Positions 5,884 to 59,100 of a DNA stretch of 64,000 nt are shown one piece after another. Both the position numbers and the translations under genes were made by a program. The notes below the pieces were generated by a model, which saw nothing but the letters and a program-made list of their open reading frames with translations, made no database searches and was not told the DNA's origin. Origin of the DNA: a candidate division BRC1 bacterium ADurb.Bin183. GTDB taxonomy: Bacteria; Sumerlaeota; Sumerlaeia; MWCT01. The first letter of the stretch is position 1. Each line of letters starts with the position of its first letter. The DNA lies in assembly GCA_002070185.1 (NCBI GenBank), contig MWCT01000001.1, positions 267,110-331,109 of the forward strand, read 5' to 3'.

Positions 5884-7284
5884 CTAAATCCCTTCCTCCC
5901 TTTGCATGTGCATAACGCCCGGGGGAATGGCTCCAGGGGGCGGCGGCGCCGCCTCGCCAAGTCCGGGCGGCGGAGGAACGGGCGCTGCCGCCACGCCGCT
6001 TTCGCTTGGTTTTTCTTCCCAGATGGTATCCAGATCCACGACCACACCCTCAACCATGCGGAGGACGTTGAGAAAGGCGTAGGCGTCCAGAACGCCTTCC
6101 CGTTCTTTTATGGTGTTGATAATCAGCGAATCGAGCTCGTAAGAACGGGAGACGTGGGAGACGTTGTAAAGGAAGTGGGTGATGTTGAAGTTTGAGCCGG
6201 TGAATCTCATTAGGATTGGAATTCCTGTGGCGATGATGTTTTGCGGAGGGGGCGCCTGCGCTCCGAGAGAAGCGGGGCGCGGTCGTCCAATCATGCCGAC
6301 TCTGCCGCCTTCGCCCATTTCGCCGTGCATCATCATCAAGTATTCGGGGTCTTCCGCCATCGCGAAAGGCATCGCTTCCGGCATAGGCGCGTTTTGTTCG
6401 CCCGGTTCAGGTGTTTCGCCGGGTTTGGGCGGTTCTTTGATAATATTCATTTCCTTCAGTTGCACTTCTGTTATGTCCTCAATCTTGTTAGTTTCCGCCA
6501 TTTGGATAATATCGTTGAGGGCGAAGAGTTGTTTATTGAGAGCCAGAAGGTCGTCATTGGGATAGGAAAGACGGAGAAATTCCTGAATCTGTTCGTCGGT
6601 GAATTTAATATCTTTAGGTTTGGCGCTGATGATGAGTTTGTAATGGCATTCGCGATTAATCAAAGGAACAAATTTGCCGTATTTATTGAGCCCCTCAATG
6701 GCGGGTTCATCAATGCCGATTTCCTCAAGGAGTTTGCTATACTGGCGCAAATTCTGGTCGCGGACGTTGGGGTTGTCCACGACCTTCAAAATGGCGCTGA
6801 TACCGCTGAGCGAACTCATAACGTCCCAAAGACGTTCGGGGCGTTTTCGGATATTTTCCGGCAGCTCGCGCGGGAGGTTCCATCCTTTTTCGCCGATAAA
6901 GCTGAGTTTTGTATTTTTTAAAGAATCCTGAAACCCGAGAAGAGTATCAATGCATTTTGTAAATTCCTCTTGGCGTTTTTTGATGGCTTCCGGGCTGGGG
7001 TCAATATAAGTTTTGGGAAGGTCTATTCTTAATTGTTCAATGACATCCTCGAATTCTTTTTTGTTCGTATCAACGCGGGCTTCGACCTTTTTTAATTCCT
7101 CAGGATTTTTTACCTTCGGGATAACCTGCTCATAGTTATCGCGGGAAGATTTCCAGTCATTCATGACAAGGGTGTATTCTGTGGCTTTGCGGGAAAAGAC
7201 CATGAAATGAAGACCGGCAAGAAAAAGAATTGTGGCAATTAAGCCAAACACCTTTTTCTCTCGATTGCGTAATACCATCTTCAT
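5884..7284 (-). CDS. Hypothetical membrane-anchored protein with Pro-rich C-terminus
   Basis: Track ORF starts at TTG 7305; the ATG at 7284 (MKMVLRN...) has an AGGAG upstream. One N-terminal hydrophobic helix, a coiled-coil-like middle and a PPPPG-rich tail. No family recognised. Confidence 0.45.
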   Translation of the reverse strand: MKMVLRNREKKVFGLIATILFLAGLHFMVFSRKATEYTLVMNDWKSSRDNYEQVIPKVKNPEELKKVEARVDTNKKEFEDVIEQLRIDLPKTYIDPSPEAIKKRQEEFTKCIDTLLGFQDSLKNTKLSFIGEKGWNLPRELPENIRKRPERLWDVMSSLSGISAILKVVDNPNVRDQNLRQYSKLLEEIGIDEPAIEGLNKYGKFVPLINRECHYKLIISAKPKDIKFTDEQIQEFLRLSYPNDDLLALNKQLFALNDIIQMAETNKIEDITEVQLKEMNIIKEPPKPGETPEPGEQNAPMPEAMPFAMAEDPEYLMMMHGEMGEGGRVGMIGRPRPASLGAQAPPPQNIIATGIPILMRFTGSNFNITHFLYNVSHVSRSYELDSLIINTIKEREGVLDAYAFLNVLRMVEGVVVDLDTIWEEKPSESGVAAAPVPPPPGLGEAAPPPPGAIPPGVMHMQREEGI

Positions 7285-7495
7285 GGGATGACATCTCCTT
7301 ATCAAAAACCGTCTTTTCTGCGGCGGTTTTCAAAAGTGCAAATATTTTGGCAAACTTCATTCACATATACCAGACGATTGTAAACGCGTTGCCTGCTCCG
7401 TTGTCAATAAAATATTGTTGGGTTCTTGGGTCACCTTGATTTTTCAAAAAAATAGATGTGTCCGTTGGAAGATGAAAAATGGGAGAAGGCGGAGG

Positions 7496-7530
7496 AATCT
7501 GGGCATGGCATGCCGCACGCGCCGACAGCG
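7496..7530. repeat. 35-nt motif, copy A of an imperfect direct repeat (31/35 identical to 11954..11988)
   Basis: aatctgggcatggcatgccgcacgcgccgacagcg versus aatccgggcatggcttgccgcatgcgccggcagcg. Both copies are intergenic and in the same orientation. Confidence 0.6.
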
Positions 7531-7617
7531 TGAATAAAAGCCCCGCCGATGTTTTGTTTGGCTCATCATCGGAGACTCTTTCTTTAAATGGTTTGTTGAT
7601 TTACTCCATGTATTTTA

Positions 7618-8886
7618 TTAATTATTTTGAGACGGTTTTGCGGAGGAAATAAGGAACAGTCTGCCGGTGCCGGCGGGTATAAATAACTGCACGCCCGGAA
7701 GTTTGGGGCTGCTGTCCCGAACGGTGATTTCCTCGCCAGATATCTTATCAATCTCACAAACTTGAGACATGTCGGATCTAAATTCCACTGTGGGCCAGGC
7801 GTTGTAAGCAATATGATAATTGTTTATCAAAACGGCTTGCCTACCGTCGGCATGTTTAAAAACGCCAACAAGATAATCCATATCAGGGTCTTCCTTGGAC
7901 TTTGATATTCGTTTTAAAGGCGTGCTGGTTAGGATGTCTTCAGAATTGCAGCCGGGAGGGATTCGATAGACGTCTGTGCTTGTGAGCTGCATGATGACGG
8001 CGCCGAGGTTTTTCAACTCTCCATTAATTCGCAATGCCTCATCATAGTGGTGAGTCTGGGTTCCATCAATAGCGATAATGGCGCCGCCTTTTGGAAATTC
8101 ATCCCCCGTGGGAGTGAAGTAACAAAAATAAAGAACGCCCTTTGCGCCATAAGCTAAAGAGGTGTATATCTGCCATCTAATTTGCGCTTCTGTGGGGTCG
8201 GTATGAGATCCGTAGGGCATAACGTTGAAAAAATTCCAAAAAGGGATGTTAAACTTAAGAGAGTATTTTCGCATTGTTTCAAGGTTGCTACAATAAAGAT
8301 CCCTGCCATCGCCATCAGGTCTGAAAATGGGGTAATGATCCATGCAAAGGACATCGGGATTCACAATTTTCATAAAATCAGATATATATTTCTCATAGGT
8401 ATTTTTTCCGAGCATACCAGAATTGGCGTAATTCGGATAGAGATTGATGAAGGATAGCTTGCCCGGATAACGTTCCCTATTTTTCTCAACCTTGCGAGCC
8501 AGATTTTTAAAATCAGCAGCAGAAGGCTCGTCTTTCAACAAATACCCCCAACAAGCAGAAGAAGAAGTTGGATAGTCTTCGGCATTTAAACCCCGCGTTC
8601 TAACAAGGGTTTTTAAATTATATTTTTCACAAAGTTCAAGTTGTTTATAGATTTCCTTAGGTGTTCTTGCTTTGACGCCAACCACCAGTGTAAAATTGGC
8701 ATCGGCAATTTCCTTATAACGCACGTCCGCTTTTTCGTCTAAGGGCGGATCTACCCAGAAACCGATTGCAAACCGATCCTGATGAAATCGGGCAATTTCC
8801 TCAGCAAGGGCGGGGTTTAAGAAATTGCAAATATACAGGAAGCATAGTGCAAATGCGATGGCTAATAAAAATAAATTTTTAGTCAA
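7618..8886 (-). CDS. Secreted glycoside hydrolase-like protein (TIM-barrel type, family uncertain)
   Basis: 422-aa ORF with an N-terminal signal peptide (MTKNLFLLAIAFALCFLY...ALA). Composition and motifs (GFWVDPP, LCMDHYP) suggest a GH-like TIM barrel. Visibly more AT-rich than flanking genes. Confidence 0.4.
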   Translation of the reverse strand: MTKNLFLLAIAFALCFLYICNFLNPALAEEIARFHQDRFAIGFWVDPPLDEKADVRYKEIADANFTLVVGVKARTPKEIYKQLELCEKYNLKTLVRTRGLNAEDYPTSSSACWGYLLKDEPSAADFKNLARKVEKNRERYPGKLSFINLYPNYANSGMLGKNTYEKYISDFMKIVNPDVLCMDHYPIFRPDGDGRDLYCSNLETMRKYSLKFNIPFWNFFNVMPYGSHTDPTEAQIRWQIYTSLAYGAKGVLYFCYFTPTGDEFPKGGAIIAIDGTQTHHYDEALRINGELKNLGAVIMQLTSTDVYRIPPGCNSEDILTSTPLKRISKSKEDPDMDYLVGVFKHADGRQAVLINNYHIAYNAWPTVEFRSDMSQVCEIDKISGEEITVRDSSPKLPGVQLFIPAGTGRLFLISSAKPSQNN

Positions 8887-9034
8887 TGGACTTCTCTTTC
8901 ATTTTAGAATTCGACTCATATATTGATCATTTCGTTTGGAAGAGTGAAAGTATGGGGAGCAGATTTAAATTTTCCTAGATTCTGCAAAATAGCGATAAAA
9001 ATAAAAACTTCCAATCGCTCTGAGAATCGCCGGG

Positions 9035-11875
9035 CTATTTCTGTTTCATAATATGAATGATATCCGCAACGTCTATGATATTGTCCTTGTTATCATCGGC
9101 GGCATTTTTTTCTTCAGGTGTGAACGGTTTTTTGCCCAGAATATGCGAAATAATTGCGGGGATTGACGGAATATATTCGTATGCTCCCATATCATAACCA
9201 GAGCCCTGAGGACGCTTTACGCCGAGAATATCATAATCCGGCGCGCCTTCGGATGTCCCCTTGTCAATACAGGGGGAATTCGGCTGAAGCCGCAAATCCC
9301 ATTTTGTTGGGTCATCGCCGGATACATTGACAAACATAGGATTATCAGAAATATTGCCCCCGCCTGATATCCCACCGCTGAAACAACTGTACTTCACCAC
9401 ACCGCCGGAAAATTTAAAGTCTTCAGTATAATTATCCCATACTATACAGTTGGTCACTGTGCCTTTGTTATAAATCCCGCCGCCGTCTATTGCTCTGTTA
9501 TTATAGACTGTGCAATTGGTCACTGCGCCTTTGTTATAAATCCCGCCGCCGCGAGTTTTTGCGTTGTTTCCATAGACTGTGCAGTTGATCACCGTGCCGG
9601 AGTCGTAGTTATAAATCCCGCCGCCGCTATATTTTGCGCTGTTTCCATATATTGTGCAGTTGGTCACCGTGCCGTAGTTAGAAATCCCTCCGCCGTCATC
9701 TGCGTTGTTATTATAGACTATGCAATTGGTCACTGTGCCTTTGTTATAAATCCCGCCGCCGCAGAAGTCTTTGGCTATGACGTGTGTGCTTGATCTATTT
9801 CCATAGATTGTGCAGTTGGTCACCGTGCCTTTTTCGTAGTTATAAATCCCGCCGCCGTAATCTGCTTTGTTTTCATAGACGGTGCAGTTGGTCACCGTGC
9901 CGGAGTCGTAGTTATAAATTCCGCCGCCGCTATATTTTGCGCTGTTTCCATAGACTGTGCAGTCGGTCACCGTGCCTTTTTCGTCGTTATAAATCCCGCC
10001 GCCGATGTCTGTTGAGGTGTTATTATAGACTGTGCAGTTGGTCATCGTGCCGGAGTTATCTATCCCGCCGCCGTTTTTGGTTGCACTGTTTTCATAGACT
10101 GTGCAGTTGGTTACCGTGCCGTAGTTATAAATCCCACCGCCATCAGATACTGCGCTGTTTCCATAGACTGTACAGTTGGTCACCGTGCCTTGCCAGCTAT
10201 CAATCCCGCCGCCAACGTCTGCGTTATTTCCATAGACTGTGCAGTTGGTTACCGTGCCGTATTTGTTACTAATCCCGCCGCCGCTGCCAAATTGGCTTAA
10301 TACTTTGTTTCCATAGATTGTGCAGTTGGTCACTGTGCCAGTATTGTAAATCCCGCCGCCGTAATTTTCAGTTTTGCCTCTTGTAATATGAAAGCCGTCC
10401 AAAAATCCTGAGTTTTGGACGCAACGGCAAGCATCCTCTCCATCTATGATTGTGGGATGCGAGGAAATGTTCCGTTGTGAAAGTTGTGATTCCGTTCCCG
10501 CAAAGCCGCCATAAAGTGTAACGCGAATAGGAATTATTAATGTCTGCCCCTCAGCGTATGTTCCTTCCGCAACCCAGATTTGATAAATATCATCAGAATC
10601 CGCAATCTTATTCAAGGCGGCATTGATGGTTTTCAAAGCCGTCTTCCACGAGAGCCCATTATTGGCGTCGTTTCCGGATTTAGAAACATAAAGAGGACCC
10701 AAAGCTCGAGGCGGTTGAGGCTCATATTCATTGGGAGATTCATAGGCTCCCATGCAGACTTTGCCATCGGCGCCCGGTCGAGGATTGCCCATAATGTCTG
10801 TCTCCGGTGCGTCCTTCGTGCTCCCCGTATCCACACAAGGAGAGCCATTTTGCAATCGAAAATCCCATGTTGATAAATCGCCTGATGTGTTGACGAAAAG
10901 GGGATTCCCCCGTATATTTCCGTCATTTCCATCAGCCTCTTCGAAACAGCTATATTTCACAGATACTCTATTCCAAATATCTCCAAGCGAGTTTTTCCAT
11001 GAGATACAGTTGGTCACCGTGCCTTTGTTATAAATCCCGCCGACGATGTCCGTTGCGCTGTTATTATAGACTGTGCAGTTGGTCACCGTGCCTTTGTTAT
11101 AAATCCCGCCGCCGCCATATTTTGCGTTGTTGCTATAGACTGTGCAGTTAGTCACTGTGCCTTTTTCGTCGTTATGAATCCCGCCACCGTAATTTGCTTT
11201 GTTTTCATAGACTGTGCAATTGGTCAGCGCGCCGGAGTCGTAGTTATAAATCCCGCCGCCGTAACTTGTTGCGCTGTTATTATAGACGGTGCAGTTGGTC
11301 ACCGTGCCGGAAGAATCGTTATAAATCCCGCCGCCGTAACTTGTTGCGCTGTTATTATAGACTGTGCAGTTGGTCACCGTGCCGGAAGAGTTATAAATCC
11401 CGCCGCCGTAACTTGTTGCGCTGTTATTATAGACTGTGCAATTGGTCACCCTGCCGTAATTGTTATAAATCCCGCCGCCTAAGCCATATATCCCTCTTGT
11501 AATATGAAAGCCGTCCAAAACTCCTGAGTTATGGACGCATTGACGGGCATCCTCTCCATCTATGATTGTAGGATGTGCGGAAATGTTCCGTTCTGAAAGT
11601 TGTGATTCCGTTCCCGCAAAGCCGCCATAGAGCGCAACATCTTCACGATTACTAACGGTTTTAGATTCTGCATAGGTCCCTTTTGCGACCCAAACCTCAT
11701 CGCCTTCTTGTGCCTTTTCTGTTGCCTTTACAATTGTTTTTAAGGCGGCATCCCATGAAACTCCCGAATTAGTATCCTTGCCGGTGGTTTTCACATAATA
11801 CCGCGCCGCAAAGGTGGAAGTTGACATAATCACCCAAAATGCAATTACCGGGAAGATGCCTCGAGTAGATTTCAT
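9035..11875 (-). CDS. Secreted right-handed parallel beta-helix repeat protein, internally duplicated, with a dockerin-like C-terminal tail
   Basis: Track ORF 9035..11905; the ATG at 11875 (MKSTRG...) has a GGAG-type RBS. Two homologous ~450-aa modules, each with many GTVTNCTVYNNSA..GGGIYN rungs. C-terminus DDNKDNIIDVADIIHI resembles one dockerin/EF-hand-like Ca-binding loop. Confidence 0.7.
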   Translation of the reverse strand: MKSTRGIFPVIAFWVIMSTSTFAARYYVKTTGKDTNSGVSWDAALKTIVKATEKAQEGDEVWVAKGTYAESKTVSNREDVALYGGFAGTESQLSERNISAHPTIIDGEDARQCVHNSGVLDGFHITRGIYGLGGGIYNNYGRVTNCTVYNNSATSYGGGIYNSSGTVTNCTVYNNSATSYGGGIYNDSSGTVTNCTVYNNSATSYGGGIYNYDSGALTNCTVYENKANYGGGIHNDEKGTVTNCTVYSNNAKYGGGGIYNKGTVTNCTVYNNSATDIVGGIYNKGTVTNCISWKNSLGDIWNRVSVKYSCFEEADGNDGNIRGNPLFVNTSGDLSTWDFRLQNGSPCVDTGSTKDAPETDIMGNPRPGADGKVCMGAYESPNEYEPQPPRALGPLYVSKSGNDANNGLSWKTALKTINAALNKIADSDDIYQIWVAEGTYAEGQTLIIPIRVTLYGGFAGTESQLSQRNISSHPTIIDGEDACRCVQNSGFLDGFHITRGKTENYGGGIYNTGTVTNCTIYGNKVLSQFGSGGGISNKYGTVTNCTVYGNNADVGGGIDSWQGTVTNCTVYGNSAVSDGGGIYNYGTVTNCTVYENSATKNGGGIDNSGTMTNCTVYNNTSTDIGGGIYNDEKGTVTDCTVYGNSAKYSGGGIYNYDSGTVTNCTVYENKADYGGGIYNYEKGTVTNCTIYGNRSSTHVIAKDFCGGGIYNKGTVTNCIVYNNNADDGGGISNYGTVTNCTIYGNSAKYSGGGIYNYDSGTVINCTVYGNNAKTRGGGIYNKGAVTNCTVYNNRAIDGGGIYNKGTVTNCIVWDNYTEDFKFSGGVVKYSCFSGGISGGGNISDNPMFVNVSGDDPTKWDLRLQPNSPCIDKGTSEGAPDYDILGVKRPQGSGYDMGAYEYIPSIPAIISHILGKKPFTPEEKNAADDNKDNIIDVADIIHIMKQK
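9400..10350 (-). repeat. Degenerate tandem coding repeats (~70-75 nt period) encoding beta-helix rungs, C-terminal module
   Basis: Recurring near-identical stretches such as tgtgcagttggtcaccgtgcc...tataaatcccgccgcc appear roughly every 70-80 nt. Confidence 0.7.
10990..11480 (-). repeat. Degenerate tandem coding repeats encoding beta-helix rungs, N-terminal module
   Basis: Same repeat family as 9400..10350; several units are near-identical at the DNA level (e.g. gctgttattatagactgtgcagttggtcaccgtgccggaag). Confidence 0.7.
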
Positions 11876-11953
11876 TTTTATCCCCTCTCCAAATGTTCGA
11901 TACATTCAAATTCTCGACAAATAGAGAAACCAATTGCAATAAATATTTAGGGA

Positions 11954-11988
11954 AATCCGGGCATGGCTTGCCGCATGCGCCGGCAGCG
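11954..11988. repeat. 35-nt motif, copy B of an imperfect direct repeat (see 7496..7530)
   Basis: 31/35 identity to copy A, same orientation, intergenic between the stop of the GT39-like gene and the start of the beta-helix gene. Confidence 0.6.
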
Positions 11989-12107
11989 CCGATTATTCTC
12001 TTTTATAAATCTCAACAATTTTGAGGAATCAGGGTAGGGCGAGAGGGCTTGGGGTTTTAAGACGCTCTGGACACGATGACTTATCTGCCGTTGGCAAAGG
12101 CAAAAGT

Positions 12108-14078
12108 TTACTCCATTGTTTTCATTTCTATTTGTTCAACCCATATGGAAAGTTCGCGGGTATCCGCATCAAGAGGGTCGAGGCGCTGGGGCGATTGGGT
12201 GCGGCTGGAAAGGATGCGCGCCTCATTGACTCCGCTGAAAAGGGCTTCCGGCTCGATTTCCCATGCGATGTCCTGCCAACCTTGATGAAGCGTTCGGGAT
12301 GTGAGCAGGGTATCATTCACCATCAGATTCAGTTGGAGGGCGGGGTTCATTGCCTGATTGTAAGGGAAAACGCGGACGGACACCGCGAGCGGCTGCGCGT
12401 TTTCCAGAGTAAAAAAGAAAAAGCCTTCTTTGCCGTCCATGGCTCGGAGGGCTTTCCCCTCCCAGATTTCGCGCCCGCTCCAGCCCATGCCAAGATAGGG
12501 GCATTTTTCCTTTCCGGGAAAGATGATAAGATGGGGATTCGAATTGCCCAGAGGCGCGGTTTCAATGCGGGCGGAGTGTTTCTGCCAGATGGAGAGTCCC
12601 CAGAATTGAGGCGCTTCTTTATGCATGCCATTTTCTAAAATCTGCCGGTATCGAAGATTCGGGATATGCGCCGTTTCGATATAGGAGGGCAGAACAATTA
12701 AATGATTTCCGCGGCTGCGCAAAATATTCTCGAGCGTTTTTGTATCATCAAAATCAGTTTTTATGACCGTGTTTGTGCCGCAAAAAATGTTTTGATAGTA
12801 AGGAGCGACAAGAAAGTCTGCCTCCGTTCCCACAACCACAATTTTGTTTTTATGCTCCTCGCGGGCAAGTCTTTGGAAAAACCCGCGCCAGTCTGCGCGG
12901 TTGACGGGATACGCAAGGATATAGTAAAGCCCCGCCCCGAGACATAATGCGCCCAAAAATAAAGCCGCCGATGTCGCGGCGGCGGGCGCTGGCTTTTTGA
13001 AAAAGCGCCGAACAATGACTCCTGTAATCCACCCAAGCGTTTCGATTCCCATAGCGGCAAGCGCAAGAGCCGCCGGCAACGCCGCAAGGACATATCGCAC
13101 CTCCATCCAGTGATTGATGGCGTAATAAAACCCGAACATCCCTGCGAAAAAAACCGTGAATAAAAAAAAGCAAAAAAGGGCGGCGGGTCTTTTGTCGCGT
13201 CTGATAATCCAGCCTGCCAGACCAATCGCCATCAATGCCAAAAGCGCCCAGCCGCTCCCCGCAACGTATTGCCACCAATCATAGCCCAGCGCAAAAATAT
13301 CCAGATAAAGGCGCGCCCGTTCCCATGAGGCGGCGTCAAAGGGGGCGTAGTATTGAGTCTGAATGGCGCCGGCGCCCCGCTGCATGAGCGGAATCATGCT
13401 TAAAAGCGTCAAGAGAAGGAGGGCGGCGGGAAAAAGCCATTGCCGTTTTTGGGCGAACATCTCCCGCGGTTTATAAGGATGTTCTTTTTTCATAAGAAAC
13501 CAGCCCGCGCCAAAAAGAAGAGCCGCAAAGCAGACCAGCCCTGTCCAGTAAAGCGACCAGAGGCAAATCGCCATCGTGAAAATCAAAAAAGACATCTGGC
13601 GCGGACGGGGCGGCGCTGGCGATTTTGCCACACTCCAGAATGCGCCAAGGAACAGGCTTTCGGAAAAAAGCATCAAGGCATAGGGGCGCCCCTCTTGAGA
13701 ATATCGCGCCATCAAAGGGTTGCCAAGCGCCAGAATCAAGACGATAAGCCCGAGGGCGCTTCCGCCCATTTTCCATGCCCACCACCCCAGCGCCGCAACC
13801 GCCGCCGAACCGATGATGCAGGCATGCAAACGCGCGCGCGCCTCCGATGTTGGGGCATCCTTTTTCATAAAAAACCACTGAATGTAATAATCCAGCGGAG
13901 GTTTGTCGCTTGGGGATTGAGACCATATTTTGCCAAACCGCCCGCTTGTTGTCCGCATTTGAAGAATCTCATCCTGCCAAAAGGAGGCGCGGTCAATATG
14001 GGGCAAACGCGTAAAAAACGCTGCGATAAAACCGAGCAGAAGATAAACTATGAAAACCGGTTTTTTAACGGGAAACAT
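12108..14078 (-). CDS. Membrane glycosyltransferase, GT39/GT83-like (ArnT/PMT family) with C-terminal extracytoplasmic domain
   Basis: 656 aa, many TM helices in the first ~450 aa, an early DE motif in the first loop (FWQDEIL) and a soluble C-terminal domain. Typical of ArnT/PMT-type glycosyltransferases. Confidence 0.55.
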   Translation of the reverse strand: MFPVKKPVFIVYLLLGFIAAFFTRLPHIDRASFWQDEILQMRTTSGRFGKIWSQSPSDKPPLDYYIQWFFMKKDAPTSEARARLHACIIGSAAVAALGWWAWKMGGSALGLIVLILALGNPLMARYSQEGRPYALMLFSESLFLGAFWSVAKSPAPPRPRQMSFLIFTMAICLWSLYWTGLVCFAALLFGAGWFLMKKEHPYKPREMFAQKRQWLFPAALLLLTLLSMIPLMQRGAGAIQTQYYAPFDAASWERARLYLDIFALGYDWWQYVAGSGWALLALMAIGLAGWIIRRDKRPAALFCFFLFTVFFAGMFGFYYAINHWMEVRYVLAALPAALALAAMGIETLGWITGVIVRRFFKKPAPAAATSAALFLGALCLGAGLYYILAYPVNRADWRGFFQRLAREEHKNKIVVVGTEADFLVAPYYQNIFCGTNTVIKTDFDDTKTLENILRSRGNHLIVLPSYIETAHIPNLRYRQILENGMHKEAPQFWGLSIWQKHSARIETAPLGNSNPHLIIFPGKEKCPYLGMGWSGREIWEGKALRAMDGKEGFFFFTLENAQPLAVSVRVFPYNQAMNPALQLNLMVNDTLLTSRTLHQGWQDIAWEIEPEALFSGVNEARILSSRTQSPQRLDPLDADTRELSIWVEQIEMKTME

Positions 14079-29996: not shown

Positions 29997-31283
29997 ATGG
30001 TGGATAACGTTCAAAGAGACCGCGCCGAGCGCAAGAATTCGTGGCTTTATGGACTCATGGTGTTGATTTTGGTGTTTGGTCTTGCCGTGCTTATATATCT
30101 TGAACGGCAGATAGTTTCCGACCGCCGCATCGCCTTTGAAAATGCCGCCACTCTTTTAAGTCGGGAACTCGTGCTGAAAAATCCGGATAATGTCCGCATC
30201 TCTTCCGACGGGCTTAAAACGCTTGCGGCAACAATCCGCAAAAATCCTTTCATCAAAGATATCTATGTTTCAAAAATAATTGCCGGACGCGGCGAGCATA
30301 TCGTTTTCCCCTTTCATTACGAAACGCTTCTGCCGCCTCGGAAAAAAAACTTAAAACGCCTCATTCGGGCGCCGCTTGAGGAAAATGGAAATGTTTGGGG
30401 CTATCTTTATATTGAACCGAATAATAACATCATTGTAAGCGTGCGGGCGGCAGCGGCGGCTTTTTCCCTGCTGCTAATACTCTCGCTTGTCTCCTTTTAC
30501 AGGCGCGTCCACACGCAGGAGCGGGTCATCACGGAAACCTCATTCGCCCTTGATGAACGCCGGCGCGAATTAATCCGTCTGGAACGCCTTGCCCTTGCAG
30601 GAATGCTCACTGCCAACATCCTCCACGATATTAAAAAACCTGTTTTGAACATCAAGCAGGAGGCGCAGGACATGGAGCGCCAGCCCGATGAAAAAACGGC
30701 GCGGGCGGCGGCGCGAAGCATTCAGGAACAGGTGGAACTTTTTTTCAACATCCTGCGGGATTTGGGGTTGGAACGGTTTGTGAAGGCGCGCGAGGGCGGC
30801 GAGGAGTTTGTGGATGTGAATGAAATTTTGGAACGCGCCTGCCGCCTTGTGCGCTATGAATGCGGAAGCTCGGAAGTGGTTTTTGATTTGGCGGAAAAAC
30901 TACCCGCCCTGTTAGCCCGCCCGACCAGACTGATTCAACTATTTTCCAATTTGATTCTGAATGCATTTCAGGCGATGAAAGGAAGCGGGAAACTCGCCAT
31001 ACGCACAGCATTTCAAGACGGCGCGATTCATGTTGAAATAACCGACACGGGTCCCGGCATTCCGCCCGAGTTGATAAAAAAGATTTTCAATCCGTTTTTC
31101 AGCACGCGGGGCGGAGAAACCGGCGGAGAGGAAGGCTCCGGACTCGGGCTCTTTATCTCCAAAAATATTGTGGATGACATGAAGGGCGAATTGCGCGTTG
31201 AAAGCGCTCCCGGCAAAGGCGCAAAGTTTGCGGTTGTTCTGCCCGTTCATTCTCAAAACGAAAAGGAAGCGCAAAAAATATAA
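29997..31283 (+). CDS. Sensor histidine kinase
   Basis: Track ORF starts at TTG 29913; ATG at 29997. N-terminal TM helix, H-box (LAGMLTANILHDIKKP) and HATPase_c motifs (ITDTGPGIPPELIKKIFNPFFSTR, GSGLGLFISKNIV). Confidence 0.75.
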   Translation: MVDNVQRDRAERKNSWLYGLMVLILVFGLAVLIYLERQIVSDRRIAFENAATLLSRELVLKNPDNVRISSDGLKTLAATIRKNPFIKDIYVSKIIAGRGEHIVFPFHYETLLPPRKKNLKRLIRAPLEENGNVWGYLYIEPNNNIIVSVRAAAAAFSLLLILSLVSFYRRVHTQERVITETSFALDERRRELIRLERLALAGMLTANILHDIKKPVLNIKQEAQDMERQPDEKTARAAARSIQEQVELFFNILRDLGLERFVKAREGGEEFVDVNEILERACRLVRYECGSSEVVFDLAEKLPALLARPTRLIQLFSNLILNAFQAMKGSGKLAIRTAFQDGAIHVEITDTGPGIPPELIKKIFNPFFSTRGGETGGEEGSGLGLFISKNIVDDMKGELRVESAPGKGAKFAVVLPVHSQNEKEAQKI

Positions 31284-31285
31284 AT

Positions 31286-32704
31286 ATGAAAGACAAACCC
31301 GCCATATTGCTTGTTGAGGATGATGAAGCGTATGCTCGCCGGCTTGGGCGGAATCTTGAAATGGACGGCTTTGAGGTGGAGATTGCCTTTGGCGGTAAAG
31401 CCGCGCTCGAAACCCTTGCCCGCGCCTCTTTTGACCTTATCATCACCGACGTCAAAATGCCCGACCTCAACGGTATGGATTTGATCGAGATTATCCGCCG
31501 CGAAGGTCATCCCGGCGTGGAGCCGGACGTCCCCATCGTGGCGTTATCCTCAGTCAATTCTGTGGATACCGCAGTCGCCTGCATGAAACTCGGCGCCGCC
31601 GATTACATCACAAAGGAATCGGAACGTCCGGAAATAGTCCTTCGTCTGAAAAAGGCGCTCGAACAGGAACGTCTGCGGACGGAAAACCGATACCTGCGCG
31701 ACCAGCTGGCGCAGTCCAATGAGTTCAACGAATTTATCGGCGAGAGCGAAGCCATCCAGCGCATCAAACAGGAGATTGCCGACCTATCGCGTCAGGCGGT
31801 CTCGGTGATTCTTATGGGCGAAACGGGCGTGGGCAAGGAGCTCGTGGCGCGGGCGCTGCACCATTTGCGTGGCGCACACGCCGGTCCGTTTGTGGATGTG
31901 AACTGCGCCGCTCTGCCGGATGACAGCTTGATTCAATCTGAATTATTCGGGCACGAAAAAGGGGCGTTCACGGGAGCGGACGCCATGCGCAAAGGCAAAT
32001 TTGAATTGGCGGAAAACGGCAGTCTTTTTCTGGATGAAATCTCCGAACTGTCGCGCAACTCTCAAGGCAAACTCTTAAAGGTTTTAGAAAATCGGACATT
32101 CACCCGCCTTGGCGGCACAAGGGAAATCAAAGTCAATTGCCGGTTCCTCTTTGCCACAAACAAGGATTTATTTCAGGAAACGCGCTCGGGTCGTTTTCGA
32201 GAAGACCTTTATTATCGTGTGAATATTTATCCTATTGTCATCCCTCCGCTTCGGGAACGCCGCGAAGATATCGCCCCGCTGGCGCGGTTTTTCCTCTCGT
32301 TTTTTTGCCGCCGTTATAATAAGCCCGTCAAAAAATTGGAGCCGCGCGCCTTCGACCGGCTCATGTCCCATCCTTGGCTCGGCAACGTGCGCGAATTGCG
32401 AAATATCATAGAGCGGCTTGTGATTCGCGCGCCGGGGGAGGAAATCACGGCGGCGGATCTGGTTTCTTGCGGATTGGCGCTCGAGCCCGGGCGCAGCGGA
32501 ACGGTCATCTTGCCGCCGCAGGGCGTGCACTTAGACCAGCTGGAGGAGGACTTGACTCGTCAGGCGCTGGAGCGCGCCGGATGGAATCAGAAAAAAGCCG
32601 CCGACCTGCTCGGCATCTCCGTTGACCGCATGAACAGCCGCGTCCGCAAATACGGACTCACTCATCCCTCATGGCTGAAACACAAACCGTCTTTGAATGA
32701 TTGA
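31286..32704 (+). CDS. Sigma-54-dependent response regulator (NtrC/AtoC family)
   Basis: REC domain (ILLVEDDE...[14 protein letters not shown]), AAA+ sigma-54 activator motifs ([30 protein letters not shown]) and a C-terminal Fis-type HTH. Starts 3 nt after the kinase stop. Confidence 0.85.
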
Positions 32705-48695: not shown

Positions 48696-49865
48696 ATGAG
48701 GCGGCAAATTATTATTTTTACTCTCATTTTCGCCGCTGCGCTTTTGCAGACGGCGGGCGCTTTGGCGCAAATCGAAGCGGAGCCATCGGGATTTTTATCG
48801 AATGTTCAAGTTAGCTCCGATGAACTAAACATCGCCGCAAATGAAAAAACTCGCATCGAATTCAGATTAACACAATCCGCCAAAGTCACGCTCGTGATTT
48901 ACAACGCCGGACATGTTCCTGTTCGGACGCTGGCAACAGACCTGCCATGCGCGGCGGGAGTGAATGCGCTCGAATGGAACGGACGCGATGACGCCGGCGC
49001 GCCGGTTCCCGATGAGGCGTATTATTTTACCATCTCTGCGGTGGGCTCTCGGCAGCAGGTCGCCTCATTTGATCCCGCGCTCACATCCGGCGGCGAACGC
49101 ATCAAGTTCGGCGACGACAACCTGAAGTTTGACGCCGAGGCAGGCGGGATTGTTTATGAGCTCCCGTATGCCGCGCGAGTTCAAATCCGCATCGGCGTTA
49201 CAAACGGTCCTCTTTTGAAAACCCTTGTGCAATGGGCGCCAAGAAAAAAGGGGCGCCATTGCGAGCCGTGGGATCGCAAAGACGCCAGCGGTAGTATCAC
49301 GTTGACTGAGTTGAAAAATTTACGCATTCTGGGACGCGCCATGGCGCTGCCCGAAAAAAGCATCATCGTCAAAGGCGGCGGCGCGGCAAGCGCATCAACC
49401 GAACCCGTTACGCAGGACACGGCATTGCGCAGAACCGCCGTGGATGCCTCTCTGGCAAAAAGGGCGCGCCCCATCGAACCCGCCGCATGGACGCCTTTCG
49501 GCAAAAACACAGACCCTGTTTTTTCGCTCTCGCTGAAATCGGATAAGAACGCCGTTGATACTAAATCCGCGCCCCCATCATCCGAAAAAGGCGTCGCCGT
49601 TCGCGGAGAAACGGCATTCGAAATCGCCCTTGATGACGCCGCGCGCATGGCTCTTATGGAGCAGCGCTTTGAGATAGTATTTTTCGTTGATTATTCCCTT
49701 ATAGGAGAAGTGGAGCAGGGCTACTCGCCCTATACTTGGGTTTGGGACTCGACATCTGTTGCGGATGGACAGCATGTGATAACATTCAACGTTTCCGGTA
49801 TGAACGATCAGATAGGCGCCCAGTCTCTGATTGTTGATGTGCAAAACGGCATCGCTGAAAAGTGA
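48696..49865 (+). CDS. Secreted protein with FlgD-Ig-like beta-sandwich domain(s)
   Basis: Signal peptide; VTLVIYNAGHVPVRTLA...LEWNGRDDAGAPVPDEAYYFTISA resembles the FlgD immunoglobulin-like domain pattern. Confidence 0.4.
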   Translation: MRRQIIIFTLIFAAALLQTAGALAQIEAEPSGFLSNVQVSSDELNIAANEKTRIEFRLTQSAKVTLVIYNAGHVPVRTLATDLPCAAGVNALEWNGRDDAGAPVPDEAYYFTISAVGSRQQVASFDPALTSGGERIKFGDDNLKFDAEAGGIVYELPYAARVQIRIGVTNGPLLKTLVQWAPRKKGRHCEPWDRKDASGSITLTELKNLRILGRAMALPEKSIIVKGGGAASASTEPVTQDTALRRTAVDASLAKRARPIEPAAWTPFGKNTDPVFSLSLKSDKNAVDTKSAPPSSEKGVAVRGETAFEIALDDAARMALMEQRFEIVFFVDYSLIGEVEQGYSPYTWVWDSTSVADGQHVITFNVSGMNDQIGAQSLIVDVQNGIAEK

Positions 49866-51449: not shown

Positions 51450-53113
51450 TGAAAGAACAGATTACAATGCCCATGATTAGATGCGGCACAAAATGCGGCA
51501 AAGCCGAAAAAGGTTTTACCCGCTGGCAGCTGCGTGAGGCGGTTTTTCTTATTTTTGCCGTTCCTTTTTTACTGCCGCTTTTTGACCTTTTTATGGCATG
51601 GGGAGATATGGGGGCGCTGTGGAAAAGCCCCGCGGGCGGCGTTCGCCTTTTCAAAATTATGGGAAATAGCGCGCTTTTGAGTCTTTGCTGCGGGTTGGTT
51701 GCGGTGTGTCTGGGATGTCCAGCAGGAATTCTGGCGGCTGTATCGGGAGAAAGAATCCGCCTTGCCATCGGCGCGTCCAGTCTCATGCTCTTTGTCATTC
51801 CGTCCAACGTGCTTGTTGTGGGTCTTCTCACGCTTGCTTATTATATTCCGGCGCTGGATGTGTTTTTATATTCATTTATCGGCGCGGCGTTGATTCAGGG
51901 CTGGGCGCTGAGTCCGCTTGTCTTTTTCCCCGTTTACATGGCAACGCGCTCTTTCCCTCGCGAGTGGAACGATATGGGGCTGCTCGATTCCGGGCGCAGC
52001 GGCTTGATGCTGCGATTATGGTTTCCGCTGGCAGCCGTCCCCGCCTTGATGGGGGGCGGTCTGGCGATTCTTTTGAGTTATGGGGATTTTGTGATACCGG
52101 ATATTTTATTTTCGCGCAATCCACGATTCGGGATGGTTTTTTCAACGGAGATTCAGGCGGCGTTTGCGGGATTTTTTGATCTGGAGCGGGCGCGCAGGTT
52201 GGGCGCGCTTTTTATTCCTTTTCCGATTGCAATTGCCGCAGGGCTCCTTTTTTTGTTGCCCAGATTTCATGAGACGAGGGGGTTGGATGCTCATACGGTC
52301 GCGGAAGCCGCCGCCCCAAAGCCGCATCGGGAACGTTTTGATTTTGTAAAATTTGCCGTTTCGATTTTTCCTTTTATGTCATCTTTGCTGTTGATGATTT
52401 CGCTCGCGGCTCTGGCTTGGATGCTTCTGCGGGATGCCTCCGCATGGAAGGCGGTGTGGCGCTCCGCAAGCGATGAATTGTTTGGGTCGCTGATTGTCTG
52501 CGGGCTTTGCGCCGCGTTCATACTCTTTGCTGGAATTTTGATGAGTTCGCTTTTATTGATGAGACGCAACGGGAGGCGGGGCGCGCCATCGCCCGGTCTT
52601 GCCGTCTTCGGTTTTTCCGCCTTGCTTTCTTATTTTCTACCCGGCTCAATTGCAGGGGTTTTTCTGCTTAGAATCTTCAGCGTCCCGCATTTTGCCGATT
52701 TGAGAAGCACGGTCATTCCGCTTATTGCGCTTTATTTTTTGAGGGGGGCGGGGCTTGCGCTGCCGATTATTTTGATTTCCGCCGCGGCGGTTCCAGAGGA
52801 AAGGATTGCGCTTGCGCAAACGGACGGCTGCAGGTTTTGGGGACGGATTCGCCATGTGCTGGCTCCTTCGTGTTGGCGTTTTTGGCTTGCCGCGTTCATG
52901 TTGGTGTTCCCCGTTCTGATGGGCGAAACCGCAGGCGCCATGATTGTAAGCCCGCCGGGTTACACGCCGCTTTCTGTCCGCATCCAGACGGTGATGCATT
53001 ACGGACCGGGCGCTTATGTTTCAGTTTTGTGTTTGATGAGCGCCGCCTCCGCGCTGTCGGTTGTGGCGGCGGCGGGATATGTTTTTCGTAAAGGATTATT
53101 TATCACCGAATAA
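51449..53113 (+). CDS. ABC transporter permease with two fused permease domains (FbpB-like)
   Basis: 554 aa, ~12 TM helices in two homologous halves, as in iron(III) ABC permeases. Start overlaps the binding-protein stop by 1 nt (TAATG). No ATPase gene is adjacent on either side. Confidence 0.65.
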   Translation: MKEQITMPMIRCGTKCGKAEKGFTRWQLREAVFLIFAVPFLLPLFDLFMAWGDMGALWKSPAGGVRLFKIMGNSALLSLCCGLVAVCLGCPAGILAAVSGERIRLAIGASSLMLFVIPSNVLVVGLLTLAYYIPALDVFLYSFIGAALIQGWALSPLVFFPVYMATRSFPREWNDMGLLDSGRSGLMLRLWFPLAAVPALMGGGLAILLSYGDFVIPDILFSRNPRFGMVFSTEIQAAFAGFFDLERARRLGALFIPFPIAIAAGLLFLLPRFHETRGLDAHTVAEAAAPKPHRERFDFVKFAVSIFPFMSSLLLMISLAALAWMLLRDASAWKAVWRSASDELFGSLIVCGLCAAFILFAGILMSSLLLMRRNGRRGAPSPGLAVFGFSALLSYFLPGSIAGVFLLRIFSVPHFADLRSTVIPLIALYFLRGAGLALPIILISAAAVPEERIALAQTDGCRFWGRIRHVLAPSCWRFWLAAFMLVFPVLMGETAGAMIVSPPGYTPLSVRIQTVMHYGPGAYVSVLCLMSAASALSVVAAAGYVFRKGLFITE

Positions 53114-53132
53114 ACGAATTCGAGGGGAGCTT

Positions 53133-56100
53133 ATGAAAACCAAGTTGTTCCTTTCTGTGTATATGCTTTTTTTCTGCGCTTTGTTCCTGTCGGTTTATGC
53201 GCTGCCGCCGGATATAGACCAAACCGACCGCGTGGACGGCAAGGATTTAATCCGCTTTTCCCGCGCATGGCAGAAAAAAACGGGCGAGGAGGGATGGAAC
53301 GAGCGCGCCGACCTTGATTATTCGGGGCTTATTGACGAGGAGGATTATAAAATTCTCCAGCTTTATTTCGGATTGCAGGGGCGCGTCCGCCGTGTCTGGA
53401 TTTCGCAGGGAACGCCCAACACCATCATGCGTTTTGCCGATGATGGCGAACTCATCGGCAGTTTTAGCGGCGCGGGCAATCCCCGTTTGTTCGCCCTGTT
53501 CCCGGGCGACGGTTCCCTCTGGTCTCTCAATACATCGCAGGGCAAATTGTTTCATTATGATAGCAACGGACGGCTTCTTTCCACCGTGAGCGGCTTCAAT
53601 ACTCCAGCGGCGCTTTCCGTGAATGAAAAAACCGGACAGTGCTGGGTTGCCAACACTGTCAGAAAAAATGTCGTCCTTATTTCGCCGGATGTCCCCGCTG
53701 ACTATAATATCGCTTCGCAAACAGGATTTCATAAAACCATCGGCGGCTTCAATGAGCCCGTCTCCGTTTCTGTGGATTCGACGGACGGTTCCTGCTGGGT
53801 TGCCGACGCCAAAGTAAGCCAAATCATCAAACTGGACGCAAACGGAGATAAAGAGCTTTTGCGGATTGGCGGCTTTCCCAACGCCAGCCTTGTCATCGTA
53901 AATCCCGTTGACGGCGCCGTCTGGGTTGAAACAAATGATTACTTCATTAGACAAACCGTCAAATGTCTTACCAGCGGCGTCAGAATAAAAGCATTCGATT
54001 CAGGGGCGCTTCTTTGCGTCAGCCGCAATGATGGCTCCGTTCTTGTTCAAGGAACAACGTATAGCGAGGTCTGCCGCATCAGCGCAAATGGCGAAGAGAT
54101 TTTCCGCGTTGGAGGCTTCGGCTGGATTATAGCTGCCTTTGCCGATCCGGTCAGCGGCTGCTTCTGGCTGCTGGATCAAGAAAAAAATGAAGTGGTGAAA
54201 CTCTCCGCAGGCGGGGCGACGCTCCTGCGTATAGGCGGCGTTTTTGGGCAGCTTTCATCTGGCGCGATAGATGACGGCGAACCGACTTTTTCATCCTATC
54301 CCCGCGCCGCTGTTCAGGCGTCGCCGCTAAAAGGCGGCGTCCCTCTCAAAGTCTTTTTTGCCGCTCAAATAGAAAATGCGGGCGGCGCGATTTTAAATTA
54401 TCAGTGGGATTTTGACGGCGACGGTCTCTTTGACTGGATGTCTCAGACAACCGGCGATGTTAGCCACACATATGAAACACCGGGCATCTATAATCCCATT
54501 TTCCGCGCGGTGAATGAAAAGGGGCTCGCGGCGGTCAACACGTCCCTCCTCATAACAGCGGGGGAGCCGGAGATTCGCCTGGACGCAAGCCCCGCAAGCG
54601 GCGCGGCGCCTCTAAAGATCGCATTGAATACAATTCTGCTGAACATTCCCAGAACTGCTGTTCATGCCATTTTGTATGATTTGGATGGCGACGGCAATTT
54701 TGATGCGCTTTACGAAGGCAAAGATATATTGAAAGGCTTAAGTGTTTCTCACACATACCGCAAAATTGGCGACTTCTATCCGATGGCTAAAGTTGTCTTG
54801 CAGGAGGGCGGCGAGGTTTGCGCGTCCGCAACCGTGGAGGTTCATTCTCCCGCCCCAACCGTCAAGGCATCCGCCAAACCCGCGCAGGGCTACATGCCGC
54901 TTTCTGTGGAGCTTTCCGCGCAGGCAAAAGATGATGACGGCAGCGTTGTTTTATATGAATGGGATTTTGATAATGACGGCATATTCGACTGGCGCAGCAC
55001 AACGCAATCCAACGTCTTGAATGTGTATCGCCAAAAAGGCAATTTCACGGCATTGGTGCGCGTGACTGATAATGACGGCTTACAGGCGTCCGACGTTGTC
55101 CCGATTCGGGTCTTAAACAAACCGCCGGATGTGACGGCGGATGCCGAACCGCGCAAGGGAAACGTCCCGCTGTTGGTCAATCTCAAGGGACAGGCGACCG
55201 ATGCCGATGGGAGCGTTGTCCTGTATGAATGGTCGCCGAAGGGCGACGGCAATTTCATCTGGCAATCCCCCTCCGCCGGTCTGACCTCATATACCTATAC
55301 TGAGCCGGGGATTTATCATGCAACCTTTCGCGCCACAGATGACGAAGGCTCCAGCGCCACAAAAACCGTTGCCATTGAAGTGCGGAATGCGGGCAAGCCT
55401 TTTGCTTTGCCGGATGCCGCGCCCCGCAGCGGCGCCGCCCCGCTCAATGTCAATTTCACCGCCGCCGGTTCCGATGACGATGGCTCGATTGTCCTTTATG
55501 AATGGTTTTTTGAACTGCCCTACGAGCGCCTTGACCAGTTGTGGAAACGCCCCCTTGCCGATGATTATTCCTCGCCGGATTCTTATTGCGGCATCGCCTA
55601 CAACAAAGCGACCGGACATCTCATCTTTGCCTCTAACGGGGGCAAAAATTTTCCCGCTGGATTTTACATCATTGACCCGGCAACCGGTCGGACCATCGGC
55701 AAACTTTCGGAAAACGGTGTCTCATTTATGTCATTATCCTCTGCGCCGAGACGCAAGGCAATAGGCATTGCGCCCAGCGGGAAGATTTTCCATCAGGACG
55801 GCAACGGCGATATTGTGATGTGGGCGAACGAGGGCGCCAAGCCTGTCGTTGTTTATGACGACACGGAAAATGATGAATTCTCGCACACCATTGATGTTAT
55901 CGAACCGGCGGGCGTCGTGTATGTTTATACCTGCCGGTATGCGACGAAAGAGATAAAGATTTTTCGGCTCGATGGCGCGCTTCTTACGCATGTGAATACC
56001 GTTTCATGCAGCCCCGCCGGAAACACCGTCGGCACCGGCATCGCAGTTTCCGCCGATGGAAAGACTTTATACACCTCGTATAAATCTCTTGTTCTTTCGA

Positions 56101-59100
56101 AATGGGTCAGCCCGACCGGACCTTTGGGAACTTACACCCGCGACGCAACTTTTGCCCCGACTCAAACCGCGCCGGAATCCATCGCGCTGGGTTATGCGGA
56201 GTCTTTTCCGGAAAAGCCGACCGCGCTTCTTGGAACTCTGCATGATTCCCCGGCTGATAAGATATTCTTCTTTGATGCCGCCGGCGTAGAGTCGAGAAGT
56301 CCCGCCTTGATTGAAGGCGCGGGTTACCGTTCTTACGCATCGGATATTGATGTGGATTGGGAGAATCGCCGTATTTTTTACGGTTTTGGTGTGAACGGAA
56401 TCGGCTGCATTCATTTTTCGCCCGGCGCTTACTGGTCGTCTCCAACCCCCGGCACAATCGCGCACCAATATAACGTCTGGGGCGTTTATCATCCCATGCT
56501 CCGCGTGAGGGATAATTCCGGCTTCACGGACGAAACCGCTCTGGAGATTAACGTTCTTTCCCCTCCGTCTGCGAAAATTATTTTCCCTGAAAATAATGTG
56601 ATATCTTATCGCAACAACCTCATATTCCGCGGTTCGGGCGAGGACAAGGACGGACAGATTGTCAAATATGAATGGGACTTTGACGGCGACGGGACTTGGG
56701 ACTGGGCATCGGATAAAGAGGAGAATGCGACGTGGGCGGATGCCGATTTTGCCGAACACAACGCCTTTTTTCGCGTGACCGATTCGGACGGGCTGCAGGA
56801 TACTGTCTCGACTCATTACAAGATTGTTTCCAGCGCGCCAAAAGTTGCCGCTCAGGCGGAGCCCGCCCGAGGCAACGTCCCTGTAACCGTCACGTTCAAT
56901 GGAACCGCAACAGACGCCGATGGATGGATTCTTGATTATATGTGGGACTTTGATGGCGACGGGATTTTTGACTGGTTCAATGGAGAGCCGCGCGGCGCGG
57001 TGATTGCATGCACAAGCGAATCGCCCAATTCAAAGGCGGATAAGCTCATTGACGGCAGCCTTGCCACCAACAACTATTGGTTGAGCGCCGCTAACCCCGC
57101 CTTTCCCATTGATATCACCTTCAAACTCAAAGGCGACACCAGCCAGCAGATAGACCGAATCATACTCAGCACGAAAAACCCCATATCCGCCAACTATCGA
57201 GTAAAGGACTTTGAAGCGCATATAACCGATGAGGAAACCGCTGAAAATTTCGTCCCTTGGATTCGCGGAACAATGAACAGCGTTGCAGAAGAACAGACCT
57301 TTACATCTATCACATTAAGCGCAAAATATGTCAAACTGCGCATCCTTTCCGTCGAGAAAGGAACATCTTATGCGTCGCTGGGCGAATTTGAGGTTTATGC
57401 AGGCAAGAGAAATGTTCTCACCAATCCGGGCGCAAAAGCGACTTACATTTTCAATACACCCGGAATATACAATGCCGAACTTCGCGTCATTGATAACGAC
57501 GGTTTCGCCGGCAGCGATGTGATTCCTATCCAAGTCAATGCCAGCAATTCCCCAGCGGCGTCCATTATCGCCATGGAGCCTTCGCCGGGATGGCGAACCG
57601 AACCCATCCTTTTCATGGGTATCGGCGAGGACGCCAACGGTCAGGTGGTTAAATATGAATGGGATTTGGAGGGCGACGGGACTTACGATTTGGAGCAGAC
57701 CAAATCCGGCAGCGTTGTTTCATGGACAAGCCAATATAACACCACCACCTACGCCGCGAAAAATATTATTGACGGTCTGGCGGAGAATAGCAAGGGCTGG
57801 CGTTCCAACAGCGTCAACTTCCCGCAGGAACTTGTCATGCAGCTTGCCGATGCCGAAGGGGGCTCGCCGGTCAATCTGGCGTGTGTCGCCATCAATGTTG
57901 CGATAGGAAATCCCAATAACAATTGCGCAAAGGATTTCACTGTTTCCGTTTCCTCAACCGCCGCCGACTCCGGCTTTTCAGATGTCGGTTCATTTCAGGC
58001 GATGCGGAGCAAGGGATATCAGATTTTCACTTTTGCGCCCGCGCCGGCTCGCTGGCTGAAAATCTCCGTCACATCAAATTACGGCGGCGGATTCGTGGAG
58101 ATTGCTGAAATCTGCGCAGCGGGCAAGCCGCCTGCGCGCAACCAGCTCGCGCCCGGCGGCGCCTTTGCCCAGTATAATTTCAGCGGAAATTACAAGCCGA
58201 CCTTTCGCGTTACAGATAATGATGGTTTGATGGATTGGGCATCGCAAAAACTCGTCATCAATTCCGAGTCGCAAAAACTCGGCAGCGTCTGGGTGGCGGT
58301 TACAGGGGCGCATACGGTGAAACGGCTATCGCCTATGGGCGATGAACTCTGGTCGTTTGAATCGCTCCGTTTTCCATGGTCTGTCGCCGCCAATGTCAAC
58401 ACAAAGGATTGCTGGATTGCCAATACGCAGGGGCATAATGTTGTTAAACTCGATCCGCAGGGGGCGGAGAAGCTCCGCATTGCCGGATACAACAACCTTA
58501 AAAAAGTCGAGGTGAATCCGGTGAACGGCGTCTGCTGGGTCAGCGACACTTCCAATCATCAAGTGGTGCGATTGAGCGCGGATGGGACTCAGGAGGCGCG
58601 CATCAGCGGGTTTAGCGGTCCCACCGGGCTATCGGTATATCAGGCGGATGGCTCCTGTTGGGTGGCGGATGTGTATAATAATGGGCGCGTTGTCAAACTT
58701 GCGGCGAACACCCCTGATGGGTATGATATCAGCACGCAGACGGGTTTTCATATTTTCCGCACGGGATTCAGGGAGCCGCAAGCCCTCGCGGTCAATCAGA
58801 TGGATGGAACGTGTGTTGTGGCGGATAATAAGAACAATCAGGTCGTCCTTTTAAATGAGGAGGCAAGTGAGGAAATATGGCGCATCAGCGGCATCGGCAG
58901 CCCCATCGGCATCAGCGTCAATCCCCGAGATGGCAATATCTGGGTTGCCGACCAGTCAAGCCACCGCGTTGTGCGGCTTGCTCCCGACGGAAATGAAGTG
59001 TTTCGCGTCAGCGGTTTTAATCATCCAGGCGCTATCAGCGTTAATAACCTTGATGGAACATGCTGGGTGGCGGACACGGATAACAATCGGGTGGTAAAAC

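Follow-up and report, generated by a model that had tools for sequence, protein, structure and literature searches.

The window considered here is a 64,000-nucleotide (64-kb) stretch of contig MWCT01000001.1, positions 267,110 to 331,109, from the candidate division BRC1 bacterium ADurb.Bin183, a member of the Sumerlaeota represented by a metagenome-assembled genome (MAG) from an anaerobic digester. It contains two 35-nt sequences, at 7496-7530 (AATCTGGGCATGGCATGCCGCACGCGCCGACAGCG) and 11954-11988 (AATCCGGGCATGGCTTGCCGCATGCGCCGGCAGCG), that are identical at 31 of 35 positions, lie in direct orientation and are separated by 4458 nt from start to start. This repeat pair is genuine, is limited to two copies within the window and has sharp edges. 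Moreover, the repeats enclose exactly two genes, which are lineage-specific at this locus and sit between two ancestrally conserved gene blocks. As discussed below, we tentatively favor the view that an old two-gene insertion, now immobile, left the copies as its degenerate, attL/attR-like junction repeats, and several other origins are weighed against it.

A sharp-edged pair of direct repeats

The pair was first noticed in an earlier reading of the sequence alone (the original prediction), and realignment gave exactly the number of identities, the positions and the shared orientation that had been claimed. Similarity extends weakly beyond the 35 nt on both sides, as a purine-rich stretch on the left and an 'AT' on the right (Table 1). 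No other pair of non-coding 35-mers in the window matches at 29 or more of 35 positions. As a null expectation, 64 kb of sequence was simulated under an order-1 Markov model, with self-overlapping palindromes (scores 30-31) excluded, and the best pairs in these simulations matched at 26-28 of 35 positions against the 31 observed. A degenerate pattern describing the motif found no match in 100 shuffles, and the analytic chance expectation for such a repeat pair is about 1e-5 to 1e-3 per window. Chance similarity of two GC-rich intergenic stretches is in keeping with the small copy number and with little else; given that the simulations never exceed 28 of 35, it is effectively refuted, and its probability is negligible.

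Both copies are intergenic, as originally stated and as borne out by the positions of open reading frames (ORFs) and genes, and the four neighboring genes all lie on the minus strand. Named by the lengths of their products, these genes and the repeats follow one another, in the direction of transcription, as 656-aa gene, copy 2, 946-aa gene, 422-aa gene, copy 1 and 466-aa gene. Copy 2 is located 119 nt past the stop codon of the 656-aa gene and 78 nt ahead of the ATG of the 946-aa gene, while copy 1 is located 87 nt past the stop codon of the 422-aa gene and 211 nt ahead of the ATG of the 466-aa gene.

The similarity between the two copies ends sharply. In gapped alignments the sequences to either side of the copies match only at shuffle level (p = 0.23 and 0.12), and a larger hidden duplication was rejected on these grounds. 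Edges this abrupt would be expected of a crossover core, whereas the decay of a larger duplication would not be expected to produce them. The motif itself holds several short internal repeats and dyads, namely GGCAT-GGCAT, GGCATGCC and TGCCG-N7-CGGCA. The last of these, read directly from the sequence, is a dyad in copy 2 and is imperfect in copy 1. Its 5-bp arms and 7-bp spacer have the general layout of a tyrosine-recombinase core, although an arrangement of this type has a chance expectation of about 10% and so lends weak support.

A covariance model made from the two copies, using sequence only, was run on the window and scored each of them near 44 bits (Table 1), compared with 7.9 bits for the next match; the best other ungapped match reached 23 of 35 positions. 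The earlier claim that there is no third copy thus holds for the 64-kb window. The motif is likewise absent from about 190 kb of relatives' loci, as judged by match counts, gapped local alignment and a profile search. Scans of larger collections also yielded no extra copy, a negative that is weak in that these scans needed an exact 21-nt core and were run without a positive control. In the species-representative genome collection, the core had four chance matches only, all in unrelated high-GC genomes, and the source species itself was not returned, even though MAGs of it are public; since that species is absent from the collection or masked in it, the negatives there say little about the source genome. 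A scan of the JGI metagenomes used a pattern with an added base at +10, which excludes both known copies and halves the sensitivity, and it matched three contigs, all unrelated and with 58-67% GC. An attP site carried by a virus was also considered and rejected: one core pattern had no matches in IMG/VR, and a second had four chance matches in viruses with 62-67% GC.

Two lineage-specific genes between conserved blocks

The gene neighborhood was compared among about 46 conspecific contigs, from many digesters, and among loci of more distant relatives. The locus is marked by the proteins OQB23048-OQB23051. The conspecific contigs are 99.95-99.98% identical; their gene order does not vary, the motif copies are the same in all of them, and at this level of identity they carry no information on motif constraint. 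The relatives are more instructive about gene order. On one side of the segment, the unit made up of the 466-aa gene, a Trm112-like gene and a STAS/TPR gene is kept in four relatives (L009, L011, L014 and L034), with upstream neighbors that vary; in the source species this unit is followed by a SpoIIE/5TM-LYT phosphatase gene. On the other side, the 656-aa gene closes a block that consists of a deacetylase gene, a TPR protein gene, an opposite-strand gene and the 656-aa gene itself. This block, or at least its last three genes, is kept in the sister contig L031, at 75% amino acid identity, and in L032 and L033, at 40%, and in the latter two a P-type ATPase gene follows the block. The sister contig ends 6 nt past the 656-aa orthologue.

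The two enclosed genes are absent from all sampled relatives' loci that hold either flanking block, so that, at the distances sampled, the synteny comparison agrees with the original suggestion of a segment that relatives lack at this locus. Homologues of the 422-aa gene, which is remotely related to GH42 beta-galactosidases (see below), occur at 64-75% identity in three unrelated contexts. Their loci carry no motif, and a search for flanking repeats around the orthologues in L024, L025 and L026 found nothing comparable. The motif was not detected upstream of the 466-aa orthologues in the four relatives that keep this unit, where similarity is at shuffle level and the relatives are distant (48-58% amino acid identity), nor downstream of the 656-aa orthologues in relatives. 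Given its absence beside the flank orthologues, the motif appears together with the source lineage's gene juxtaposition. As far as the compared sequences go, the two genes and the motif are specific to the arrangement found in the source lineage. The idea that the 656-aa gene keeps a beta-helix gene as its neighbor across relatives was considered as well and rejected, in that a Beta_helix/PMT_2 pair in L011 is not detectably homologous and L032 and L035 have other neighbors.

Two further observations concern the close relatives. Public metagenomes contain a second lineage of the source species, on contigs of at most 8.7 kb, in which proteins P0023, P0027, P0028 and P0057 are about 96-97% identical; mismatches in this roughly 96% lineage number 17 of 466, 13 of 422 and 24 of 656. 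Separately, a single sequencing run, ERR14964780, yields both L031, with its 75%-identical 656-aa orthologue and conserved upstream synteny, and L024, in which a 75%-identical GH42-like gene lies next to clpX-lon and not next to the 466-aa operon. Should L024 and L031 belong to a single sister species, the GH42-like gene has changed its position since the two species diverged.

The enclosed segment is also distinct in composition. Positions 7531-11953 have a GC content of 0.450 compared with 0.518 for the window, and of the window's 34 large ORFs the two enclosed genes rank lowest in both GC and third-position GC (GC3): 0.429 and 0.433 for the 422-aa gene, 0.470 and 0.506 for the 946-aa gene, against a GC3 of 0.586 +/- 0.045 over all 34. 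Codon-usage distance is high for their length. The 3.4-Mb ADurb.Bin183 genome has a published GC content of 48.83% (PMC8092238). The enclosed genes had been described as visibly more AT-rich than flanking genes, and this description stands as a local deviation (45.0% against 51.8%) and is modest when set against the genome mean. The 466-aa gene, which lies outside the repeats, is likewise low in GC in its 5' part, and this lessens the weight of the deficit.

The first enclosed gene encodes a secreted right-handed beta-helix protein, and the second a signal-peptide protein from a family with more than 1300 homologues, some of which contain PF02449 or are named beta-galactosidase. A profile of this family matches the GH42 structures 3tts (E = 6e-4) and 5xb7 (E = 4e-3). 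The earlier labels, glycoside hydrolase-like and beta-helix/dockerin-like, are thereby upheld for the remote GH42 likeness and for the beta-helix; the C-terminal Dockerin_1 match of the 946-aa protein is weak and falls below threshold (E = 0.009). The 946-aa gene is itself built by internal tandem duplication of a module of about 470 aa, each module ending in a choice-of-anchor Q domain; one example of the duplication is the pair of stretches 10377-10522 and 11493-11638, which are 90% identical. A PMP-like coding repeat of 66-75 nt also occurs within the gene, in about 18 copies. Members of the protein's cluster span 910-956 aa, which suggests variation in length or in the start codon.

Origin of the repeats

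We infer that the repeats most likely originated in an integration event, and the mechanism can be sketched as follows. A segment carrying the 946-aa and 422-aa genes would have been placed between two older gene blocks, and this integration of circular or incoming DNA would have duplicated a short target or core sequence, leaving its two copies in direct orientation. Integration could have been carried out by a recombinase encoded elsewhere or could have occurred through a single crossover at a short homologous patch. Later, the copies would have drifted at four positions and the insert would have become fixed in the population, with the segment left devoid of a recombination gene. Given this lack of a recombination gene, the drift and the fixation, the repeats probably have no present mobility function. 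A more active version, in which the repeats are functional sites of a recombinase encoded elsewhere that switches a surface beta-helix adhesin and glycosidase cassette in and out by deleting or re-integrating it site-specifically, or else sites of an undescribed regulator linked to the STAS/SpoIIE module, is quite improbable.

A number of observations weigh against an integration origin. No integrase, transposase or resolvase gene is present in the segment or in the rest of the window (Pfam and NCBIfam searches of the 34 large ORFs), which extends to all 64 kb the earlier statement that no integrase lies between the repeats, and ARAGORN finds no tRNA or tmRNA genes in the window. There is neither a tRNA nor a conserved-gene 3' end to serve as target, and the copies are separated from the nearest stop codons by 87-119 nt. 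The copies differ at 4 of 35 positions, one of them inside the putative 7-bp spacer. A synteny breakpoint has to be intergenic in any case, which makes the agreement in position between repeats and breakpoints less telling than it seems. The segment, at 45.0% GC, is only about 4 points under the genome mean (PMC8092238), the window itself being GC-rich, and GH42-like orthologues are GC-poor relative to their neighbors in two of three relatives; low GC may accordingly be a property of this gene family. All of the roughly 46 conspecific contigs carry the segment, with no empty site and no presence/absence polymorphism among them, and the two conserved blocks are adjacent in no sampled relative, so that the ancestral empty arrangement was not observed. 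Finally, the genome-wide copy number depends on the collection scans without positive control described above.

Other explanations account for some of these points and meet difficulties of their own. It is possible, though on balance rather unlikely, that the motif is a shared cis-regulatory DNA site at which one protein co-regulates the 946-aa/422-aa pair and the partner-switching operon of 466-aa, Trm112-like, STAS-TPR and SpoIIE genes. Both copies are upstream of a start codon, by 78 and 211 nt, and have the same orientation relative to transcription, an orientation that is automatic for direct repeats among co-directional genes. An AT-rich, -35-like box follows each copy (TTGCAA at 18 nt, TTGACA at 88 nt), yet the spacing between copy and promoter differs by 70 nt and the start-codon distances are also unequal. 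The internal dyads and repeats are of the kind bound by dimeric regulators, and an intrinsic terminator was not found between the genes. Against this, there is no adjacent regulator gene and no third site in the 64 kb, and the motif is not kept upstream of the 466-aa orthologues. Moreover, a contiguous identity of 31 of 35 nt is far above that usual among independent sites and points to common descent. Descent from some other local event unrelated to the arrival of the genes, be it short-patch gene conversion, templated repair or the remnant of an older duplication, would make the pair a functionless relic. The existence of only two copies, close together, species-specific and with no recognizable function-linked feature, is in line with such an origin, and the recent internal duplications in the 946-aa gene point to a recombination-prone locus. 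That said, neutral decay should leave graded similarity in the flanks, of which none is seen, and the exact bracketing of two lineage-specific genes would be a coincidence; we regard this origin as distinctly unlikely.

Least probable of the biological accounts, and very improbable in itself, is a transcribed element, either a structured RNA or untranslated region (UTR) motif or a small ORF: a plus-strand MACR(T/M)RRQR after GGAGG-N9, or the frame SGHG(M/L)PHAP(T/A)A. In copy 1 a GGAGG precedes, by 9 nt, an ATG that lies within the motif, all four differences between the copies are synonymous or conservative in one plus-strand frame, and a 57-aa ORF is annotated over copy 1 (OQB23049.1). Yet with four substitutions the chance that one of six frames looks this favorable is about 30%, the ORFs are unequal in length and ends (10 versus 24 aa) and run antisense to the flanking genes, and the 57-aa ORF forms a single-member cluster. 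Small ORFs and leader peptides, sought in all six frames, were rejected on similar grounds, with no consistent ORF found and four substitutions too few for a coding test. At the RNA level, the copies fold no better than shuffles (z-scores of -0.38 to +0.16), their minimum-free-energy structures differ, and Rfam reports nothing at the gathering threshold or at E values up to 10. The original prediction had offered att-like island boundaries, a cis-regulatory site or an RNA element. None of the outcomes that it named as refuting came up, though two of these tests were weak: no extra copy was found, GC and codon usage do deviate locally, and the relatives sampled do not keep these genes at this locus. 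Of the three readings, the boundary is supported in part, by the lineage-specific genes enclosed and by the sharp edges, and the DNA regulatory site retains the modest probability given above; the structured RNA is not supported, for want of a shared stable fold or an Rfam match, two copies being too few for covariation. The 57-aa ORF itself, at 7479-7652 on the plus strand, runs over the 3' end of the oppositely oriented 422-aa gene and has no variants; it is probably a spurious call.

Neighboring features and likeness to known systems

Table 1. Positions of the repeat copies, the enclosed and flanking genes and a candidate promoter (numbering of the 64-kb window)
Feature	Position	Strand	Evidence or remark
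Repeat copy 1	7496..7530 (weak extension 7492-7535)	+	Covariance model 43.7 bits; identical in all conspecific contigs read
Repeat copy 2	11954..11988 (weak extension 11950-11993)	+	Covariance model 44.0 bits; dyad read from sequence
Enclosed gene 1, 946-aa secreted right-handed beta-helix / PMP-repeat protein with two choice-of-anchor Q modules	9035..11875	-	Beta_helix, Chlam_PMP and choice-of-anchor Q matches
Enclosed gene 2, 422-aa protein with a signal peptide, from a large family with remote similarity to GH42 beta-galactosidases	7618..8886	-	Homologues and profile
Flanking gene, 656-aa polytopic membrane protein with distant PMT_2/ArnT-like relatives	12108..14078	-	Last gene of conserved block
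Flanking gene, 466-aa membrane-anchored protein	5884..7284	-	First gene of conserved unit
Candidate sigma-70-type promoter of the 466-aa unit, TTGACA-N19-TACAAT	7377..7407	-	Read from sequence

Several promoter-like signals lie close to the repeats. On the minus strand, the TTGACA box of the candidate promoter begins 88 nt past copy 1, and an AT-rich TTGCAA box (11930-11935), placed 18 nt after copy 2, is its analogue there. Local alignment of the two promoter-like stretches, AATATTTTATTGACAA and AATATTTATTGCAA, is not significant (p about 0.12). A strict sigma-70 promoter scan reports none at either copy, and the TTGACA-N19-TACAAT candidate also goes unreported by that scan; a terminator scan found no intrinsic terminators at the copies. 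Between the candidate promoter and an AAGGAG ribosome-binding site, inspection by eye revealed a hairpin followed by a T-run (AAACCGCCGCAGAAAAGACGGTTTTT) at 7300-7345 on the minus strand, a possible attenuator in the 5' UTR of the 466-aa gene.

A sigma-54 promoter within the motif was also considered. The plus-strand stretches TGGCAT-N6-CGC and TGGCTT-N6-TGC have the GG-N10-GC spacing and match only 4 of 8 further consensus positions, 90 sites in the window score equally well or better, and the orientation is antisense to the neighboring genes, so this candidate was rejected. Elsewhere in the window, at 29997-32704 on the plus strand, a histidine kinase gene is followed by one for an NtrC-type sigma-54 enhancer-binding response regulator, the presence of which implies that sigma-54 is in use in the source Sumerlaeota genome. 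Among -24/-12-like sites in the window, the top score is 6 of 8, one example being at 48947 on the minus strand (TGGCAGGTCTGTTGCC). A second large family of coding repeats is found at 53079-62831 on the plus strand, where a gene encodes a giant secreted protein of 3250 aa with at least nine PKD domains together with NHL, F5/8 type C, FlgD-Ig and SGL-like regions.

The repeat pair is genuine, but it is a minor feature, and its general kind is already known. If the copies are indeed integration junctions, the locus illustrates on a small scale the shuffling of surface and glycan-active genes into conserved neighborhoods in an uncultured phylum, without a resident integrase; this would be useful for the annotation of islands in MAGs, and not surprising. 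If they are regulatory sites, they would offer a first handle on transcriptional control in the Sumerlaeota, possibly tied to the partner-switching module, and we know of no promoter or operator described in this phylum. Under either reading the practical value is, for now, limited.

Among known systems, the duplicated operators of co-regulated neighboring operons are similar in being intergenic, in lying upstream of co-directional genes and in having short dyads and direct sub-repeats. They differ in that the contiguous identity seen here is much above what is typical, the spacing is variable, and no cognate regulator or further members of a regulon are seen. Dispersed repeats of the REP/MITE type are likewise short, GC-rich, partly palindromic and intergenic, whereas the present motif has two copies in 64 kb and none in the collection scans, and has neither terminal inverted repeats nor a stable hairpin. 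Integron attC sites and the XerCD dif/IMEX sites resemble the motif as recombination sites able to flank integrase-less cassettes. Upon inspection against the consensus sequences, both were rejected, attC because the motif lacks both the GTTRRRY / RYYYAAC core and an extended imperfect palindrome, and dif because it contains no AT-rich, 28-bp dif-like sequence.

Island derivatives that retain attL and attR and lack an integrase have been described in streptococci as cis-mobilizable elements (CIMEs). The present locus departs from such elements in having no nearby integrase, no tRNA or conserved-gene target and repeats that are 89% identical, and no excised form, empty site or related element with the same core was found. 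The points of likeness are the short, sharp-edged direct repeats, the small, lineage-specific gene set, deviant in composition at least locally, and the lack of recombination genes inside. Without assigning the pair to that family, we would by analogy compare it to an integration scar, much like that of an integrase-less, CIME-type remnant.

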